A stretch of DNA of 64,000 nucleotides, taken from NCBI RefSeq assembly GCF_057098645.1, contig NZ_CM169472.1; one strand, 5' to 3'. The notes below the pieces were generated by a model. That model searched no databases, was not told the DNA's origin, and was given only the letters and a program-made list of their open reading frames with translations. Both the position numbers and the translations under genes were made by a program. Shown here piece by piece: positions 1,347 to 10,555 of this stretch (the stretch's first letter is position 1; each line of letters begins with the position of its first letter).

Positions 1347-2912
1347 ATGTCCAGAAAGAGAAAATCCAGGAGCACTATGGAAACCTGTTTTAAGATCCTT
1401 CAGCTCAAGTTCGACAAGAAGCTGACTAACCGTTGTATCGGACTGACGTTACACATCAGCGCCTCAACCGTTTTTGAGGTTCTTGCCCGCTTCAAAGCCT
1501 CTTCTCTGTCATGGCCATTACCTGCTGATATATCCCATGACACGCTGGAGAAACTCATTTTTCCGCCCAAAGACACCTTTGCATCAGAGCTTGTAATGCC
1601 TGACATGTTGTACTTCGATACGGAAATGAGAAAACCAGGTGTGACGCGGCAACTGTTGTGGATGGAATACAAGGCACAGGCGGGTAACAAAGCGATGGGA
1701 TACTCGCACTTCTGCCGTTGCTACCGGGAGTGGAAAAAAACGCGACGTCTCTCCATGCGCCAGGAGCATCGTGCCGGCGAAAAGCTTTTTATCGACTTCT
1801 GTGGTCCTACGGTTCCTGTTATTAATCCGGACACCGGTGAGATACGCCGCGTGGCAATCTTCGTGGCCGTAATGGGGGCGTCCAACTATACCTACGTTGA
1901 AGCGTGCGAAGGTCAGGACATGATGTCATGGTTAAATGCCCACAGCCGTTGCCTGACCTTCCTGGGCGGCGTACCGAAGCTGCTCATCCCCGATAACCTC
2001 AGAAGCGCAGTGAAAAAGGCCGATCGATATGAGCCTGTCATCAACGACAGTTATCAGGCACTGGCTGAGCACTATGGCACGGTTATCATCCCGGCCCGAC
2101 CACGCAAACCTAAAGATAAACCAAAAGCAGAAAACGGCGTCCTCATCGTTGAACGATGGCTTCTTGCCCGCATCCGTAATGAAACCTTCCACACGCTCAG
2201 GGCGCTGAATGCGCGCCTTAGGGAGTTACTGACAGACATGAATAACCGGCCAATGAAGGGGTACGGCAATCAAACCCGTGCAGAACGCTTCCGCATACTG
2301 GATGCGCCAGCACTCTCTCCGCTGCCTCTGGCACCTTATGAATACACGGAATACAAAGCTGTGAAGGTTGGCCCTGACTACCACGTTGAATATGCCCGTC
2401 ACTGGTACTCCGTTCCACACGAACTGGTCGGTCAGCGTCTGTCACTGAAGGCGGGGCAGTCGGTGGTACAGCTCTGGCACAAGGGGCAGTGTGTGGCGCA
2501 ACATCCGCGCAGCACACATGAATATAAACACACAACCAATCCGCTTCACATGCCAGAGCGCCACCGGCAGCACGGGACATGGACACCGGAACGCCTGATC
2601 GAGCAGGGAAAACGTACGGGCCCGTCCACAGGCCGGGTGGTTGAATCCATGCTGAAGGCAAAACCCCATCCGGAACTGGCTTATCGTGCAGTTCTGGGGC
2701 TGCTGGCACTTCAGAAAAAATACGGCCCGGAACGGCTGGAAAAGGCCTGTTACGTTGCCCTGCACTATAACGCCCCTGACAGACGCTTTATCGACAATCT
2801 GCTGCGTCACCATCGGGAGAACCTGGAGCTTCCATTATCCCGCCAGGGCGAACAACATCCGGCATATGCTTCAGAGCATGAAAACCTGCGTGGTCCGGGC
2901 TACTACCACTGA
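1347..2912 (+). CDS. istA: IS21-family transposase IstA (521 aa)
   Basis: ORF 1266..2912; preferred start ATG 1347 (MSRKRKS) preceded by GGAG; the longer ORF-track start lies inside the terminal repeats; family assignment rests on the two-gene layout and repeat architecture. Confidence 0.8.
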   Translation: MSRKRKSRSTMETCFKILQLKFDKKLTNRCIGLTLHISASTVFEVLARFKASSLSWPLPADISHDTLEKLIFPPKDTFASELVMPDMLYFDTEMRKPGVTRQLLWMEYKAQAGNKAMGYSHFCRCYREWKKTRRLSMRQEHRAGEKLFIDFCGPTVPVINPDTGEIRRVAIFVAVMGASNYTYVEACEGQDMMSWLNAHSRCLTFLGGVPKLLIPDNLRSAVKKADRYEPVINDSYQALAEHYGTVIIPARPRKPKDKPKAENGVLIVERWLLARIRNETFHTLRALNARLRELLTDMNNRPMKGYGNQTRAERFRILDAPALSPLPLAPYEYTEYKAVKVGPDYHVEYARHWYSVPHELVGQRLSLKAGQSVVQLWHKGQCVAQHPRSTHEYKHTTNPLHMPERHRQHGTWTPERLIEQGKRTGPSTGRVVESMLKAKPHPELAYRAVLGLLALQKKYGPERLEKACYVALHYNAPDRRFIDNLLRHHRENLELPLSRQGEQHPAYASEHENLRGPGYYH

Positions 2913-2928
2913 CAGAAGGAACAACAGT

Positions 2929-3684
2929 ATGAGTGATAACCTGTTAAACAAACTGACCCAACTGAAACTCCCGGCGATGGCCGGGAGCCTGATACGGCAG
3001 CGGGAAACGCCTCAGACCTACGACGAACTGTCGTTCGAGGAAAGGCTGACGCTGCTGGTTGATGACGAGCTTCTGAGCAGGGAAAACAGCCGTGTGGCAC
3101 GGTTGAGAAAAAATGCCGGCCTGAAATACCAGGCAACACCGGAAGGGCTGCGCTATCCGGCCTCAAGAGGTCTGCGGGCTGAACAGATGAGAGAACTGCT
3201 GAACGGCCACTACATAACCCACAGGAAAAACCTGCTGATAACCGGTCCGACAGGATGTGGCAAGAGCTGGATAGCCAATGCGCTGGGCGAACAGGCATGT
3301 CGACAGAAACACAGCGTCCGGTACTGTAGAACCGGGCGATTACTGGAACAACTGGCTCAGGGACGTGTTGATGGCAGCTGGCTGAAATATCTGAAACAGT
3401 TGCAAAAAATACAGGTTCTAATCCTGGACGATCTGGGGCTGGAACAGTTAAGTAACGCCCAGTGTAATGACCTTCTGGAGCTCATAGAGGATCGTTACGG
3501 ACAAAGCAGCACGATAGTGGTAAGCCAGTTCCCGGTAGATAAATGGCATGGTCTGATGGAGAACCCAACAACAGCAGATGCCATCCTGGACAGACTGGTA
3601 CATAACTCACACCGAGTGGTCCTTCAGGGAGAGTCACTGAGGAAAAATCCCCCGGTAGTGGAAAGCAGCGAAAAAACGCGTTAA
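2929..3684 (+). CDS. istB: IS21-family helper ATPase IstB (251 aa)
   Basis: Walker A GPTGCGKSW and DExx-like LILDDLG motifs; ATG 2929 preceded by AAGGA, 16 nt after the istA stop; ORF-track upstream extension overlaps istA and is not used. Confidence 0.85.
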   Translation: MSDNLLNKLTQLKLPAMAGSLIRQRETPQTYDELSFEERLTLLVDDELLSRENSRVARLRKNAGLKYQATPEGLRYPASRGLRAEQMRELLNGHYITHRKNLLITGPTGCGKSWIANALGEQACRQKHSVRYCRTGRLLEQLAQGRVDGSWLKYLKQLQKIQVLILDDLGLEQLSNAQCNDLLELIEDRYGQSSTIVVSQFPVDKWHGLMENPTTADAILDRLVHNSHRVVLQGESLRKNPPVVESSEKTR

Positions 3685-3784
3685 AAAGCGGTAGAAAAAG
3701 TTAAGTTCCCGGTTGATCGAATGGATGCGAATCGCTGATCGGACTTCGATGCCAATCCGTGATCGAATAGAGCGGAATACGCAC

Positions 3785-3791
3785 ACCAGGG
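3785..3791. repeat. Target-site duplication CACCAGG, right copy
   Basis: Identical to 1138..1144. Confidence 0.75.
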
Positions 3792-4331
3792 GAGTAGATC
3801 GTACTCAATCCCTCGTGAACCGAGATGGTAAAGCACCTGATTAGTGGCACACTGATTTCCCCCCGGCAGCTGCCAGAGTTCCTGCATATCAGCATAATCA
3901 AGGTTAGAAACGCCCCAGCGGCGGATTTTTCCCTGGGCGATCAATTTTTCCATCGCTGCGACAGTCTCTTCAAAAGCGAAACGGCCAGACCAGTGTAATA
4001 AGTAGAGATCGAGATAATCAGTATTGAGACGGCGTAAACTGGCTTCGCATGCATTTATCGCTTTTTGCCCGCCAGCATTCCACGGATAGACTTTAGAGAC
4101 GAGAAAGACGTTATCGCGCAGACCGGTTAATGCTTCCCCAACCACCTTTTCGGCACCGCCATCGGCATACATTTCGGCGGTATCAATGAGGGTTAAACCG
4201 AGCTCAATGCCCGCGCGTAGTGCAGCAACTTCTGTTTTGCGCTGACTGGCATCTTCGCCCATATACCATGTTCCCTGCCCTATGGCTGGCAGTGAGACAT
4301 CGCCACTAAATTGAATCATTTTTTGTTGCAT
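3785..4331 (-). pseudogene. yeaE: yeaE 5' fragment (aldo-keto reductase N-terminal about 182 codons)
   Basis: ORF 3681..4331 matches YeaE from MQQKMIQFSG to LLPWC, then continues into IS-derived sequence. Confidence 0.85.
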
Positions 4332-4364
4332 TGTTTCCTCCCAGGTATTGCACCACCGTAATGC

Positions 4365-4390
4365 AAAACAGGGCGTGACGCCCTGTTTTT
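4365..4390. terminator. Stem-loop with flanking A/T runs downstream of mipA
   Basis: AAAACAGGGCGTGACGCCCTGTTTTT. Confidence 0.55.
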
Positions 4391-4420
4391 ATGCACAAAA
4401 TGCCCTGGAAAGATGCATTA

Positions 4421-5167
4421 TCAGAATTTGTAGGTGATCCCGGTAGAAATCAGGCCAGTCCAGGATTTATCCACCATCGGGCTGTCAGTAACTTCATCAG
4501 ACAGACGGGTGTAGCGCGCGGTACCGTAAACACTCCAGTCGCCGAGGAAGTTGTAGCTGGCGCTCAGCTCCAGGTAAGGGCTCCAGCTGTCGTTCGGGTT
4601 ATAGCCACGCAGACCGCTGCGAGCGGACTCTTTGCGCGATACGCCATAATAGTATTCGTTCTGGTTTTCGCTGTTCCACTGCACACCAATACCCGGAGTC
4701 ACGGTCAGGCCACCGTTGGTGTAACGATACAACCAGGCCATATCCCAGACGATGCCGTTGCTGTTATCCAGGGTATCGCCAGCCAGGGTGGTACGCAGGT
4801 AACCGTACTGGGTAAAGTGAGCATAAGACAGACCAGCCATCATGGTGCTCTTACGGTCATCCAGGTGACGCATTTGGTGATCGCCACTGTCTTTAGCTTT
4901 GAAGTAAAGCGGCGACCAGTAAGCGGTAATTGAAAGTTTATCCGTTGCGTCATTCCACAGGTAGTAACCACCACCTAAGCCACGGAACCAGAAGTTATCG
5001 CCTTCATAGTTGATTACCGGTACTGGGTAAACATCGGTATCGTAATCTTTATATGGGTGTTCAACGACACCTACGCCTGCGCCCAGGGAAAATTTACCTT
5101 CAGCGTGCGCTACGCCTGCAGACGTTGCGATAAGCACTCCAAGTGCCAGAAGTTTGAGTTTGGTCAC
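4421..5167 (-). CDS. mipA: MltA-interacting outer-membrane protein MipA
   Basis: 248-aa ORF with signal peptide and beta-barrel-like sequence; recognised as MipA. Confidence 0.9.
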   Translation of the reverse strand: MTKLKLLALGVLIATSAGVAHAEGKFSLGAGVGVVEHPYKDYDTDVYPVPVINYEGDNFWFRGLGGGYYLWNDATDKLSITAYWSPLYFKAKDSGDHQMRHLDDRKSTMMAGLSYAHFTQYGYLRTTLAGDTLDNSNGIVWDMAWLYRYTNGGLTVTPGIGVQWNSENQNEYYYGVSRKESARSGLRGYNPNDSWSPYLELSASYNFLGDWSVYGTARYTRLSDEVTDSPMVDKSWTGLISTGITYKF

Positions 5168-5483
5168 AATTAATCATTCCTTAAACAAATGTTTAGCGGG
5201 CGACAAAGTTTACCCGTCAATACATCGAAACCCAACCTTTTTACGTTTTCATTTTTTAAAGTAACTGTTTAATTTTCCTGACGCGGATGACACCGCGCTT
5301 ACAGCCAAATGAATTTAGCGTTACTGGCGAGCCTGGTCTTTACATTAATTATGCAAAATTTATGGATGAGTTGTTGATATGCCATTGAAATTAAGAAAGC
5401 CGTGTAGGCAAGTTTTCCATTTGCCATCTACGCTTAATTTTGAAGGTGTATCACCGGGCACGTTGTTCTCATCGTCGATAAAA

Positions 5484-5499
5484 TGGCATGAGAGTTGCT
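5484..5499 (+). promoter_or_regulatory. Candidate sigma-54 promoter (-24 TGGCAT / -12 TTGCT) upstream of yeaG
   Basis: TGGCATgagagTTGCT about 105 nt upstream of the yeaG ATG; matches the GG-N10-GC spacing. Confidence 0.4.
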
Positions 5500-5602
5500 G
5501 TGTTTTAGCAAGAGACGTCGTTCAGTTTACCTCTTCCGGGAGCCTCTACTATTCATATGAACGGCTCTTAACCTGTGCTAAAAAACGAAAGGACGGCATA
5601 CC

Positions 5603-7537
5603 ATGAATATATTCGATCACTATCGCCAGCGATATGAAGCTGCCAAGGACGAAGAGTTCACACTGCAGGAGTTTCTTACCACTTGTCGGCAAGATCGCAG
5701 TGCTTATGCCAACGCGGCTGAGCGGCTATTGATGGCTATCGGTGAGCCTGTCATGGTCGATACAGCCCAGGAACCCAGACTTTCTCGACTCTTTTCTAAC
5801 CGGGTCATTGCACGTTATCCGGCGTTTGAAGAGTTTTACGGCATGGAAGACGCGATTGAACAGATTGTCTCTTATCTGAAACACGCGGCTCAGGGGCTGG
5901 AAGAGAAGAAACAAATCCTGTATCTGCTGGGGCCTGTGGGTGGGGGTAAATCATCGCTTGCTGAGCGACTGAAATCATTAATGCAGCTCGTACCGATTTA
6001 TGTATTGAGCGCCAACGGTGAGCGTAGCCCGGTCAACGATCATCCGTTCTGTCTTTTCAATCCGCAGGAAGATGCGCAGATTCTGGAAAAAGAGTATGGC
6101 ATTCCTCGCCGTTATCTCGGCACCATCATGTCGCCGTGGGCGGCAAAACGTCTGCATGAATTTGGTGGCGATATTACTAAGTTCCGGGTAGTGAAGGTCT
6201 GGCCGTCCATTCTGCAACAAATTGCTATCGCCAAAACAGAGCCCGGTGATGAGAACAACCAGGACATCTCCGCGCTGGTAGGGAAAGTCGATATTCGTAA
6301 ACTCGAACACTACGCGCAGAATGACCCAGACGCCTATGGCTATTCCGGCGCACTGTGCCGCGCCAACCAGGGGATCATGGAATTCGTTGAGATGTTTAAA
6401 GCACCGATTAAAGTGCTGCATCCCTTGTTAACCGCCACTCAGGAAGGTAACTACAACGGGACGGAAGGTATCTCCGCCCTGCCGTTCAACGGGATTATTC
6501 TTGCCCACTCGAACGAGTCCGAATGGGTCACTTTCCGTAATAACAAAAACAACGAAGCCTTCCTCGATCGTGTTTACATCGTGAAGGTGCCGTATTGCTT
6601 GCGCATTTCCGAAGAGATCAAAATCTACGAGAAATTGCTTAATCACAGTGAATTGACTCACGCCCCATGCGCCCCTGGCACGCTCGAAACACTGTCACGT
6701 TTTTCCATTCTTTCGCGCCTGAAAGAGCCAGAAAACTCCAGCATTTATTCAAAGATGCGGGTTTATGATGGCGAAAGTCTGAAAGACACCGATCCCAAAG
6801 CCAAGTCGTATCAGGAATATCGTGACTACGCCGGTGTCGATGAAGGGATGAACGGTCTGTCGACGCGTTTTGCGTTTAAGATCCTCTCCCGCGTGTTCAA
6901 CTTCGATCATGTAGAAGTGGCGGCAAACCCGGTCCATCTGTTCTACGTCCTGGAACAGCAGATCGAGCGCGAGCAGTTCCCACAAGAGCAGGCAGAACGC
7001 TATCTGGAGTTCCTGAAAGGTTATCTGATCCCGAAATATGCCGAGTTTATTGGCAAAGAGATCCAGACGGCCTACCTTGAATCCTATTCCGAATATGGGC
7101 AAAACATTTTCGACCGTTATGTTACCTACGCGGATTTCTGGATTCAGGATCAGGAGTATCGCGATCCGGATACCGGGCAGCTGTTTGACCGCGAGTCTCT
7201 TAACGCCGAGCTGGAGAAAATCGAGAAACCGGCGGGGATCAGTAATCCAAAAGATTTCCGCAACGAGATTGTTAACTTCGTACTGCGCGCCAGAGCCAAT
7301 AACAGCGGACGCAATCCGAACTGGACCAGCTATGAAAAACTGCGCACGGTTATCGAGAAGAAAATGTTCTCCAATACCGAGGAGCTGTTGCCGGTTATCT
7401 CGTTTAACGCCAAAACGTCAACCGACGAGCAGAAGAAACACGACGACTTTGTCGACCGTATGATGGAAAAAGGCTACACCCGTAAACAGGTGCGTTTACT
7501 GTGCGAATGGTATTTGCGTGTACGTAAATCGTCTTAA
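5603..7537 (+). CDS. yeaG: PrkA-type serine protein kinase YeaG
   Basis: 644-aa ORF with P-loop GPVGGGKSS; recognised as YeaG. Confidence 0.9.
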   Translation: MNIFDHYRQRYEAAKDEEFTLQEFLTTCRQDRSAYANAAERLLMAIGEPVMVDTAQEPRLSRLFSNRVIARYPAFEEFYGMEDAIEQIVSYLKHAAQGLEEKKQILYLLGPVGGGKSSLAERLKSLMQLVPIYVLSANGERSPVNDHPFCLFNPQEDAQILEKEYGIPRRYLGTIMSPWAAKRLHEFGGDITKFRVVKVWPSILQQIAIAKTEPGDENNQDISALVGKVDIRKLEHYAQNDPDAYGYSGALCRANQGIMEFVEMFKAPIKVLHPLLTATQEGNYNGTEGISALPFNGIILAHSNESEWVTFRNNKNNEAFLDRVYIVKVPYCLRISEEIKIYEKLLNHSELTHAPCAPGTLETLSRFSILSRLKEPENSSIYSKMRVYDGESLKDTDPKAKSYQEYRDYAGVDEGMNGLSTRFAFKILSRVFNFDHVEVAANPVHLFYVLEQQIEREQFPQEQAERYLEFLKGYLIPKYAEFIGKEIQTAYLESYSEYGQNIFDRYVTYADFWIQDQEYRDPDTGQLFDRESLNAELEKIEKPAGISNPKDFRNEIVNFVLRARANNSGRNPNWTSYEKLRTVIEKKMFSNTEELLPVISFNAKTSTDEQKKHDDFVDRMMEKGYTRKQVRLLCEWYLRVRKSS

Positions 7538-7637
7538 CAACCCTGGCCCGGTACACATGCTACCGGGCCTACAACGACAGCGAACCGTGGGCCAGAGAAA
7601 TGGCAACACAGGCGTAGCATACAGTTGGCAAATGTAG

Positions 7638-8933
<1,296 letters not shown>

Positions 8934-8937
8934 AACT

Positions 8938-8970
8938 ATCAGCCGGGTCATTATCGCCTGGCTGATTTTT
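8938..8970 (+). terminator. Rho-independent terminator after yeaH
   Basis: ATCAGCCGGG...CCTGGCTGAT hairpin followed by TTTTT. Confidence 0.6.
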
Positions 8971-9079
8971 AGCTTACTGTAAATTATCTCATTTATTACA
9001 TACATTAGCTTACAATCGCTTTAAATATGACAGCATAACCTTTACATAATTTAGTTCCAGAAAACAATCATTCGGAAAA

Positions 9080-10555
9080 ATGATTCAGTCAACACGTATT
9101 TCCATGGGGTTATTCTTTAAATATTTTTTATCGTTAACGAAAATTGATCTTGGTCAAAACTATATATCTCTGCCATCAATAAAATCCAGCACTCACATTG
9201 TTCTCCTTTTTATGGTTTCTATGGGTACACAAAAATTAAAAGCTCAAAGCTTTTTTATTTTCAGTTTATTGCTGACGTTAATTTTATTTTGCATTACTAC
9301 CTTATATAACGAAAACACAAATGTAAAACTCATCCCACAGATGAATTACCTGATGGTTGTTGTGGCTTTGTTTTTCCTTAACGCCGTCATTTTTCTTTTC
9401 ATGTTAATGAAATATTTCACTAACAAACAAATTTTACCAACACTCATTTTAAGCCTTGCATTTTTAAGTGGCCTTATCTATTTAGTTGAAACCATTGTAA
9501 TTATCCATAAACCAATTAACGGCAGTACACTGATCCAGACAAAGTCGAATGATGTTTCTATTTTCTATATTTTCCGCCAACTCAGTTTTATTTGTTTAAC
9601 CTCGCTGGCGCTCTTTTGTTATGGCAAAGACAACATCCTGAACAATAATAAGAAAAAAACGGCAATCCTGTTGCTGGCGCTGATCCCTTTTTTATTTTTT
9701 CCCGTTCTGGCACACAATCTGAGCAGTTATAACGCTGACTATTCTTTGTATGTCGTCGATTACTGTCCTGACAACCATACTGCGACCTGGGGAATCAACT
9801 ATACAAAAATATTGGTTTGTCTGTGGGCATTTTTACTGTTCTTTATTATCATGCGTACACGATTAGCCAGCGAACTATGGCCATTAATAGCATTATTATG
9901 TCTGGCATCGCTATGCTGCAACTTACTTCTACTGACTCTGGATGAGTATAATTACACCATCTGGTACATCAGTCGCGGGATTGAAGTCTCCAGTAAACTG
10001 TTTGTTGTGTCTTTTCTGATTTATAACATTTTTCAGGAGCTGCAACTCTCCAGCAAACTGGCAGTTCATGATGTGCTGACCAATATTTATAATCGGCGCT
10101 ACTTTTTCAACAGCGTAGAGTCATTATTGTCGCGACCTGTTGTTAAGGACTTTTGTGTCATGTTGGTTGATATTAATCAGTTCAAACGCATCAATGCCCA
10201 ATGGGGACATCGTGTGGGTGATAAAGTGCTGGTATCAATTGTCGATATTATCCAGCAAAGCATCCGCCCCGATGATATTTTAGCGCGACTGGAGGGTGAG
10301 GTGTTTGGCTTGCTATTTACCGAACTCAATAGTGCCCAGGCAAAAATCATTGCGGAACGTATGCGTAAAAATGTCGAACTCCTGACCGGCTTTAGTAACA
10401 GATATGATGTTCCTGAACAAATGACCATCAGTATTGGCACTGTTTTTTCAACGGGTGACACGCGTAATATCTCGCTTGTCATGACGGAAGCAGATAAAGC
10501 CTTACGCGAAGCGAAAAGCGAGGGGGGCAACAAAGTGATTATTCATCATATTTAA
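9080..10555 (+). CDS. yeaI: Membrane GGDEF-domain protein with degenerate active-site motif (EGEVF)
   Basis: 491-aa ORF; AT-rich multi-TM N-terminus; RLEGEVFGLLF where GGDEF is expected. Confidence 0.85.
   Translation: MIQSTRISMGLFFKYFLSLTKIDLGQNYISLPSIKSSTHIVLLFMVSMGTQKLKAQSFFIFSLLLTLILFCITTLYNENTNVKLIPQMNYLMVVVALFFLNAVIFLFMLMKYFTNKQILPTLILSLAFLSGLIYLVETIVIIHKPINGSTLIQTKSNDVSIFYIFRQLSFICLTSLALFCYGKDNILNNNKKKTAILLLALIPFLFFPVLAHNLSSYNADYSLYVVDYCPDNHTATWGINYTKILVCLWAFLLFFIIMRTRLASELWPLIALLCLASLCCNLLLLTLDEYNYTIWYISRGIEVSSKLFVVSFLIYNIFQELQLSSKLAVHDVLTNIYNRRYFFNSVESLLSRPVVKDFCVMLVDINQFKRINAQWGHRVGDKVLVSIVDIIQQSIRPDDILARLEGEVFGLLFTELNSAQAKIIAERMRKNVELLTGFSNRYDVPEQMTISIGTVFSTGDTRNISLVMTEADKALREAKSEGGNKVIIHHI

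Follow-up and report, generated by a model that had tools for sequence, protein, structure and literature searches.

The sigma-54 element upstream of yeaG-yeaH in Escherichia coli, a very probable NtrC-activated promoter in a predicted sigma-S leader, and the hairpin between the two genes

The yeaG-yeaH locus and its sigma-54 element

The DNA analysed in this study is a 64-kb stretch of E. coli chromosome, referred to here as the window. The 2.5 kb around the motif of interest match several sequenced chromosomes of this species at 100% identity; 5,424 of the 5,426 complete E. coli genomes carry this 2.5-kb region at an identity of at least 95%. The gene yeaG, encoding the protein kinase YeaG (644 aa), occupies 5603..7537 on the plus strand according to its open reading frame and the RefSeq annotation of identical DNA, and is followed on the same strand by yeaH (YeaH/YhbH family, 427 aa; ORF and RefSeq annotation) at 7650..8933. 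Upstream of yeaG, mipA runs from 5167 to 4421 on the minus strand, which leaves a mipA-yeaG spacer of 435 bp (5168..5602). An ORF of 75 aa at 5379..5606 was rejected as a gene: it begins upstream of both predicted transcription starts, the indels in its alignment are non-triplet, and its Salmonella counterpart has been described as yeaG 5' non-coding region. Farther upstream in the window, yeaE contains the end of an IS21-family element (istA/istB, ISSso4-like), located at about 3791 (window 2400..3791 and 3681..4331), which cuts this gene to 216 codons, compared with 284 in K-12; the junction is found in one of the 5,426 complete E. coli genomes, that of strain CDF6.

The sequence TGGCATGAGAGTTGCT (TGGCAT-GAGAG-TTGCT), located in the mipA-yeaG spacer at 5484..5499 on the plus strand, was assigned as the sigma-54 (RpoN) -24/-12 element of yeaGH from its sequence, weight-matrix score, published sites, and conservation. 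Its GG (5485-5486) and GC (5497-5498) have the canonical spacing, the motif is oriented toward yeaG, and 103 nt separate its end from the yeaG ATG at 5603. The sequence-only reading had proposed a sigma-54-type motif at exactly these positions, about 105 nt upstream of yeaG and fitting the consensus, and our analysis agrees on all three points, the fit being an exact match.

Concerning the statistical weight of this match, TGGCATGAGAGTTGCT is the sole exact occurrence of TGGCAYN5TTGCW on either strand of the 64-kb window, and with one mismatch allowed, nine matches were found against 7.2 expected. Shuffled windows contained a mean of 0.36 exact matches, and at least one was present in 34 of 100 of them; therefore, the exact match taken alone is weak evidence. 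The weight-matrix scoring suggested earlier as a check was carried out with a matrix built from 41 intergenic E. coli K-12 sigma-54 ChIP-seq sites, from which the yeaG site was excluded. The yeaG motif ranked first in the window with 16.0 bits, compared with a training median of 15.6, and this score was attained in 2 of 30 shuffled windows. What places the motif beyond chance is its location and orientation in the spacer, since only about 0.001 exact consensus matches are expected in these 435 bp in the right orientation, together with its recurrence at this position in 24 loci of other species.

Two other sigma-54-like sequences were noted in the neighbourhood. The antisense motif TTGGCATAAGCACTGCG (5696..5712, minus strand, 13.1 bits) covers yeaG codons ~31-36 and was set aside; it is conserved across genera, which most simply reflects conserved amino acids of YeaG, and it is absent from the published list of sigma-54 ChIP-seq sites. 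The one-mismatch motif TGGCACTTGGAGTGCT (5133..5148, minus strand, 9.2 bits) falls within the mipA signal-peptide codons in sense orientation and is probably a chance occurrence. Scans for sigma-70 promoters and terminators were uninformative around both this element and the hairpin described below.

Conservation of the element and architecture of the upstream region

Conservation was evaluated in a set of 80 loci obtained by scanning 100,044 species genomes with YeaG. Of these loci, 24 contain an exact consensus match at 78-226 nt ahead of the ATG, representing about 15 Enterobacterales genera and including Escherichia, Citrobacter, Pseudescherichia, Pluralibacter, Superficieibacter, Enterobacter, Kosakonia, Erwinia, Pantoea, Tatumella, Serratia, Rahnella, Brenneria, and Dickeya, and each of these 24 loci (~4.9 kb) holds a single such match. 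The alignment of the upstream regions (alignment A1) revealed that the GG, the GC, and the GGTTGCT of the -12 region are retained, while the N5 bases and the flanks vary.

Two Yersinia species and Edwardsiella lack the motif at the orthologous place, and so do loci L013 and L015, whose upstream context differs. In a Pseudocitrobacter MAG, the spacer is otherwise conserved and only the -24 element is mutated, indicating that loss of the motif does not require loss of its surroundings. Among the relatives in Vibrionaceae, Aeromonas, Shewanella, Pseudoalteromonas, Rheinheimera, and Alteromonas, the motif is also absent, with best scores below 11.2 bits. Judged from this sequence comparison, sigma-54 control is an Enterobacterales-level feature added to a far more widely conserved operon.

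Weaker candidates were observed at other positions in some of the taxa named above. The Yersinia loci L024 (1000..1016) and L029 carry TTGGCATGCAAACCGCA and TTGGCATACAAACTGCG on the yeaG strand (12.8 and 14.2 bits, respectively), about 485 nt before yeaG and overlapping the 5' end of mipA. In two Shewanella species, loci L046 and L051 contain, at similar positions, the weak sigma-54-like sequences ATGGCGCACTTCTGGCA and TTGGCCCACTTCTGGCA (10.5-11.1 bits) about 300 nt before yeaG.

Alignment A1 contains two strongly conserved upstream blocks, the first of which, ...ATGCCATCTACGCTTAATTT, includes the sequence CTACGCTTAA at 5428..5437 on the plus strand. This sequence is near-invariant in Enterobacteriaceae and matches the sigma-S extended -10 consensus. 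With the putative sigma-S-type -10 in this position, a sigma-S start is predicted near 5441, and the sigma-54 element would lie at about +44 to +58 of the sigma-S leader. The placement of CTACGCTTAA fits the published description of 'adjacent promoters' (PMC6299236). The conserved upstream block GATGAGTTGTTGATATGCCATTGAAATT (5365..5392, plus strand; alignment A1) is also present in taxa without the sigma-54 motif; for this reason it is tied more probably to the sigma-S promoter, which it probably serves.

For the sigma-54 promoter itself, transcription is predicted to start at about A5510, 12 nt after C5498. The resulting transcript would have a 93-nt leader (5510..5602, plus strand), in agreement with the 'distance 93' given in PMC4591121, and this leader is longer than most of those in the same published table of sigma-54 sites. 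Its 3' half (CCTGTGCTAAAAAACGAAAGGACGGCAT) is nearly invariant in the alignment. RNAalifold folded the leader into a small helix plus a CUGUGCU/AGGACGG pairing over the Shine-Dalgarno sequence, and as this anti-SD pairing showed no covariation, a structured leader element was not supported. An Rfam scan of 4200..9100 at E<=1 gave no match, so that neither the leader nor the yeaG-yeaH spacer holds a known RNA family.

Nitrogen control and the NtrC sites

Knowledge of the yeaGH promoters matters, but the sigma-54 promoter has been described before, both in papers and in regulon tables, so that the sequence-only reading, which mentioned sigma-54/NtrC dependence of this operon as reported, was correct and not new. 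The 17-mer ATGGCATGAGAGTTGCT, identical in the window, corresponds in E. coli K-12 to OS18, a sigma-54 ChIP-seq site ahead of yeaG, with a signal 6-fold above threshold and a 'distance 93' in Table 1 of that report, in which the EcoCyc status of the promoter as of 2015 was 'predicted' and not confirmed (PMC4591121). In Salmonella LT2, TGGCATGAGAGTTGCTTT is the sigma-54 ChIP-chip site at yeaG, with a signal ratio of 4.1, and yeaGH is listed there as a predicted NtrC-dependent operon (PMC3844500). In nitrogen-starved E. coli, NtrC gives a 12-fold ChIP-seq peak at yeaGH (PMC4066584), and yeaG mRNA increases 36-fold within 20 min of nitrogen run-out (PMC4664914). A review in 2018 states that two adjacent promoters, for E-sigma54 and E-sigma38, drive yeaGH (PMC6299236). 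On the other side of the record, yeaG is not listed for the RpoN-holoenzyme in gSELEX, and our literature searches found no mapped sigma-54-dependent yeaG start and no mutation of the motif.

Based on this evidence, the motif is very probably the sigma-54 promoter of yeaG-yeaH, activated by NtrC when nitrogen runs out and nested in the predicted leader of a sigma-S transcript. In the mechanism we propose, sigma-54 RNA polymerase would bind the GG and GC as a closed complex that is unable to open unaided. On nitrogen run-out, phosphorylated NtrC would remodel this complex by ATP hydrolysis, and transcription would start near the predicted A5510. As the sigma-54 promoter would lie within the leader of the upstream sigma-S-type promoter with its putative -10 at 5428-5437, the nested arrangement would give yeaGH two inputs, namely general stress through sigma-S and nitrogen starvation through sigma-54 and NtrC.

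The yeaG promoter shares several properties with those of glnAp2, glnK, glnH, astC, nac, ddpX, and argT, including a TGGCAY-N5-TTGCW sequence bound by E-sigma54, NtrC occupancy, and induction by nitrogen limitation, and it appears in the same ChIP-seq tables as glnAp2 and other promoters of the Ntr regulon. Unlike those promoters, it is predicted to be nested downstream of a sigma-S promoter. A parallel in this respect is found in rpoH, glmY, and glmZ, where the sigma-54 site also lies beside promoters for other sigma factors, although yeaG has sigma-S as the partner and NtrC, in place of GlrR, as the activator.

The main alternative is that E-sigma54 is bound at the motif and gives little transcription, while the upstream sigma-S promoter, together with a sigma-70-type promoter, drives yeaGH and the poised sigma-54 complex acts as a modulator or roadblock. 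The location of the motif inside the predicted sigma-S leader would suit such a role. In Salmonella, both yeaG and the 5' non-coding region depend strongly on sigma-S, and yeaG reads decreased more than 200-fold in a delta-rpoS strain in stationary phase (PMC4330354). Further, a constitutive activator raised yeaGH only 2.5-fold on Salmonella microarrays, under the cut-off of the authors, and the cloned Salmonella yeaG promoter region gave the same reporter activity in delta-rpoN as in the wild type (PMC3844500). According to Shimada et al., some RpoN-bound promoters rise on deletion of rpoN or ntrC.

Against this alternative stands the 36-fold induction of yeaG no later than 20 min after nitrogen run-out, a time at which both NtrC and RNA polymerase occupy the promoter, and expression data of the Zimmer type, as cited in PMC4066584, place yeaGH in the NtrC regulon. 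The Salmonella experiments were performed in LT2 with a heterologous activator and not under nitrogen starvation. The equal reporter activity was ascribed by its authors to other promoters in the cloned fragment (PMC3844500), and the same arrangement at rpoH, glmY, glmZ, and yeaG, with a sigma-54 site beside other promoters, explains why deletion of rpoN leaves the reporter activity of a cloned region unlowered. Taken together, we consider the modulator or roadblock role improbable. That the motif is a chance match without any role has a negligible probability, for although roughly one shuffled window in three would hold an exact match and equally high matrix scores arose in 2 of 30 shuffles, this idea is refuted by ChIP data showing in vivo sigma-54 binding in two species, and the position of the motif is kept across ~15 genera while neighbouring bases diverge.

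Returning to the NtrC-activated promoter, the DNA site from which NtrC would act is less evident than the sigma-54 element. Using the published NtrC consensus TGCACCAnnnTGGTGCA and its core GCAnnAnnnTnnTGC, no NtrC site was detected in 5168..5602 with up to three mismatches to the full consensus or one to the core. Two one-mismatch core matches in early yeaG (5665 and 5689) were rejected owing to their poor fit to the full consensus. A weak, conserved NtrC-like element is present at 5405..5419, with its centre at about -98 relative to the sigma-54 start predicted above; it has three core mismatches in E. coli (GTAGGCAAGTTTTCC) and one in several other genera (GCATGCAAGTTTTGC), and it overlaps the putative sigma-S promoter. 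At glnAp2, strong NtrC sites are located at about -108 and -140, and unlike at that promoter, the 340 bp upstream at yeaG contain no recognisable NtrC box.

The only good NtrC site in the vicinity is a near-consensus palindrome, TGCACCACCGTAATGCA, located at 4349..4365, with one mismatch to TGCACYANNNTRGTGCA and a perfect GCAnnAnnnTnnTGC core. It precedes the yeaE ATG by 18 nt and the sigma-54 element by 1.13 kb, and it stands beside the mipA terminator, a bidirectional hairpin (CAGGGCG-TGA-CGCCCTG, 4369..4385) identified from its sequence and cross-species comparison. This position coincides with the gSELEX NtrC peak at 1,863,654, which represents in vitro binding and was assigned by Shimada et al. 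to yeaE, the mRNA of which increased 3.1-fold on nitrogen depletion in an rpoN- and ntrC-dependent manner. No canonical sigma-54 motif was found on either strand near these boxes, and a GGCA...TGCA candidate in the yeaE-mipA spacer was discarded, its spacing being 2 nt too short for sigma-54.

In many genera, from Escherichia to Serratia, one or two NtrC boxes flank the mipA terminator. Boxes with no more than one core mismatch numbered 15 in 24 x 133 nt, compared with 11 in ~28 kb of adjacent control sequence, the loci being phylogenetically related and hence not independent observations. The boxes remain in genomes that lack yeaE and have yeaD converging on mipA, as in E. albertii, Enterobacter MGH24, RIT691, and two Serratia species, and the four mipA-linked loci that have no proximal sigma-54 motif have no box either; a good box is missing in about half of the motif-bearing genomes. 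The number of boxes at the terminator, their persistence without yeaE, the lack of a sigma-54 motif near them, and their absence from the four loci suggest that the distal box may have a role beyond yeaE.

NtrC is known to act at a distance: the glnA enhancer has been moved by kilobases (Reitzer and Magasanik 1986, as cited in PMC4066584), and the NtrC site of relA is found 649-838 bp before the start codon (PMC4066584). The box at 4349..4365 is therefore a conceivable enhancer of yeaG. Unlike the distant sites of glnA and relA, it would require the whole mipA gene to sit in the yeaG loop, and it has no reported ChIP-seq peak, the NtrC peak having been reported at the yeaG promoter and none at the distal box (PMC4066584). 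Its published assignment to yeaE, the lack of a good box in about half of the motif-bearing genomes, and the relatedness of the loci also weigh against an enhancer role for yeaG. Peak coordinates cannot place the UAS, since the ChIP-seq peak of glnA itself was called on the promoter, 100-150 bp from the known NtrC sites. Our data carefully suggest, as a speculative reading that we regard as unlikely, that the boxes at the mipA terminator serve as a long-range enhancer of yeaG with mipA in the loop, possibly shared with yeaE. NtrC might instead act through weak sites close to the promoter or, at high NtrC~P, from solution. If true, the 4349..4365 box would be a natural long-range bacterial enhancer.

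In relation to the published promoter, the additions made here are modest, comprising the restriction of the element to Enterobacterales, its nesting in the predicted sigma-S leader, the candidate distal box, and the recurrent hairpin described in the following.

The hairpin between yeaG and yeaH

A hairpin, GGCCCGGTA-CACATGC-TACCGGGCC, is located between yeaG and yeaH at 7545..7569 on the plus strand, with 9-bp arms (7545-7553 and 7561-7569) and a 7-nt loop, and it starts 7 nt after the yeaG stop codon. The existence of a hairpin in this spacer, as proposed from the sequence alone, was verified, and its position was corrected by one base to the right of the 7544..7568 given at that time. The minimum free energy is -18 kcal/mol (z = -4.3), and none of 200 shuffled sequences folded as well. 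The hairpin is followed by CTACAACGACAG, without a U-tract, and the terminator scan called no terminator-like site; an intrinsic (Rho-independent) terminator was accordingly rejected.

Intercistronic REP elements and stem-loops of the malE-malF type are known as mRNA stabilisers, and for REPs located within about 15 nt of a stop codon an effect has been reported. The yeaG-yeaH hairpin resembles the malE-malF type in being a GC-rich structure without a U-tract between two cistrons, 7 nt after the stop. It has an extragenic position inside the transcription unit, and its tail, ...CCGGGCCTACAA, resembles the ends of REPs. It differs from canonical REPs in being shorter, present as a single copy in E. 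coli, and without REP annotation in K-12: CCGGGCCTAC has one exact copy in the window, BLAST located the hairpin at a single place in each of 5,424 E. coli genomes, a result that counts only against a recent multi-copy family owing to the low power of the search for short imperfect repeats, and NC_000913.3 has no repeat feature annotated between yeaG and yeaH.

The comparison of the hairpin across genomes rests on per-sequence folds. RNAalifold gave no consensus for the hairpin orthologues, as their left arms (GGCCCGG versus GCCCGG) had been misaligned by MAFFT. Among Escherichia, both sides of the inner stem have changed and the pairing is kept (T-A/A-T to G-T/G-C). In Citrobacter, Enterobacter, and related genera, longer REP-like versions in a GCCCGG...CCGGGCCTACAA frame (GCCCGGTGGCG...CGCTTACCGGGCCTACAA) were observed, and some relatives have an extra canonical-looking REP copy beside the hairpin in the same spacer. 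More distant Enterobacterales have strong GC hairpins of unrelated sequence after the yeaG stop. In nearly all of the Enterobacterales spacers examined, such a hairpin follows this stop codon directly, also where its sequence is unrelated, as in Kosakonia, Erwinia, Yersinia, and Edwardsiella. The length of the yeaG-yeaH spacer ranges from ~20 to 235 nt across relatives, and in many non-enteric relatives it is only 20-30 nt.

From these comparisons, the hairpin is probably a REP-like intercistronic stem-loop acting at the mRNA level and not a terminator. It could serve as a barrier to 3' exonucleases that protects the yeaG segment in the manner of REP elements or, alternatively, modulate translation termination or ribosome release close to the yeaG stop. 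The suggestion made in the sequence-only reading, that the hairpin may tune the yeaG:yeaH stoichiometry, is a plausible possibility.

A decayed or neutral REP-type insertion at 7545..7569, with no effect on the ratio of yeaG to yeaH, is a serious competitor that we place somewhat short of an even chance. Such a remnant would agree with the variable length of the spacer, the many relatives without room for a hairpin, the longer REP-like versions and extra REP copies in related genera, and the absence of terminator features. It agrees less well with the recurrence of unrelated strong hairpins at the same place in Enterobacterales, with the two-sided changes that keep the inner stem paired in Escherichia, and with the single copy in E. 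coli and the lack of REP annotation in NC_000913.3.

Finally, another sequence in the same spacer, AGTTGGCAAATGTAGTACGGGGGG at 7620..7649, lies just before the yeaH ATG and is conserved in Enterobacterales (AGTTGGCA...GGGGG) even where the remaining spacer differs. It may act in the initiation of yeaH translation or as a regulatory element of this gene.
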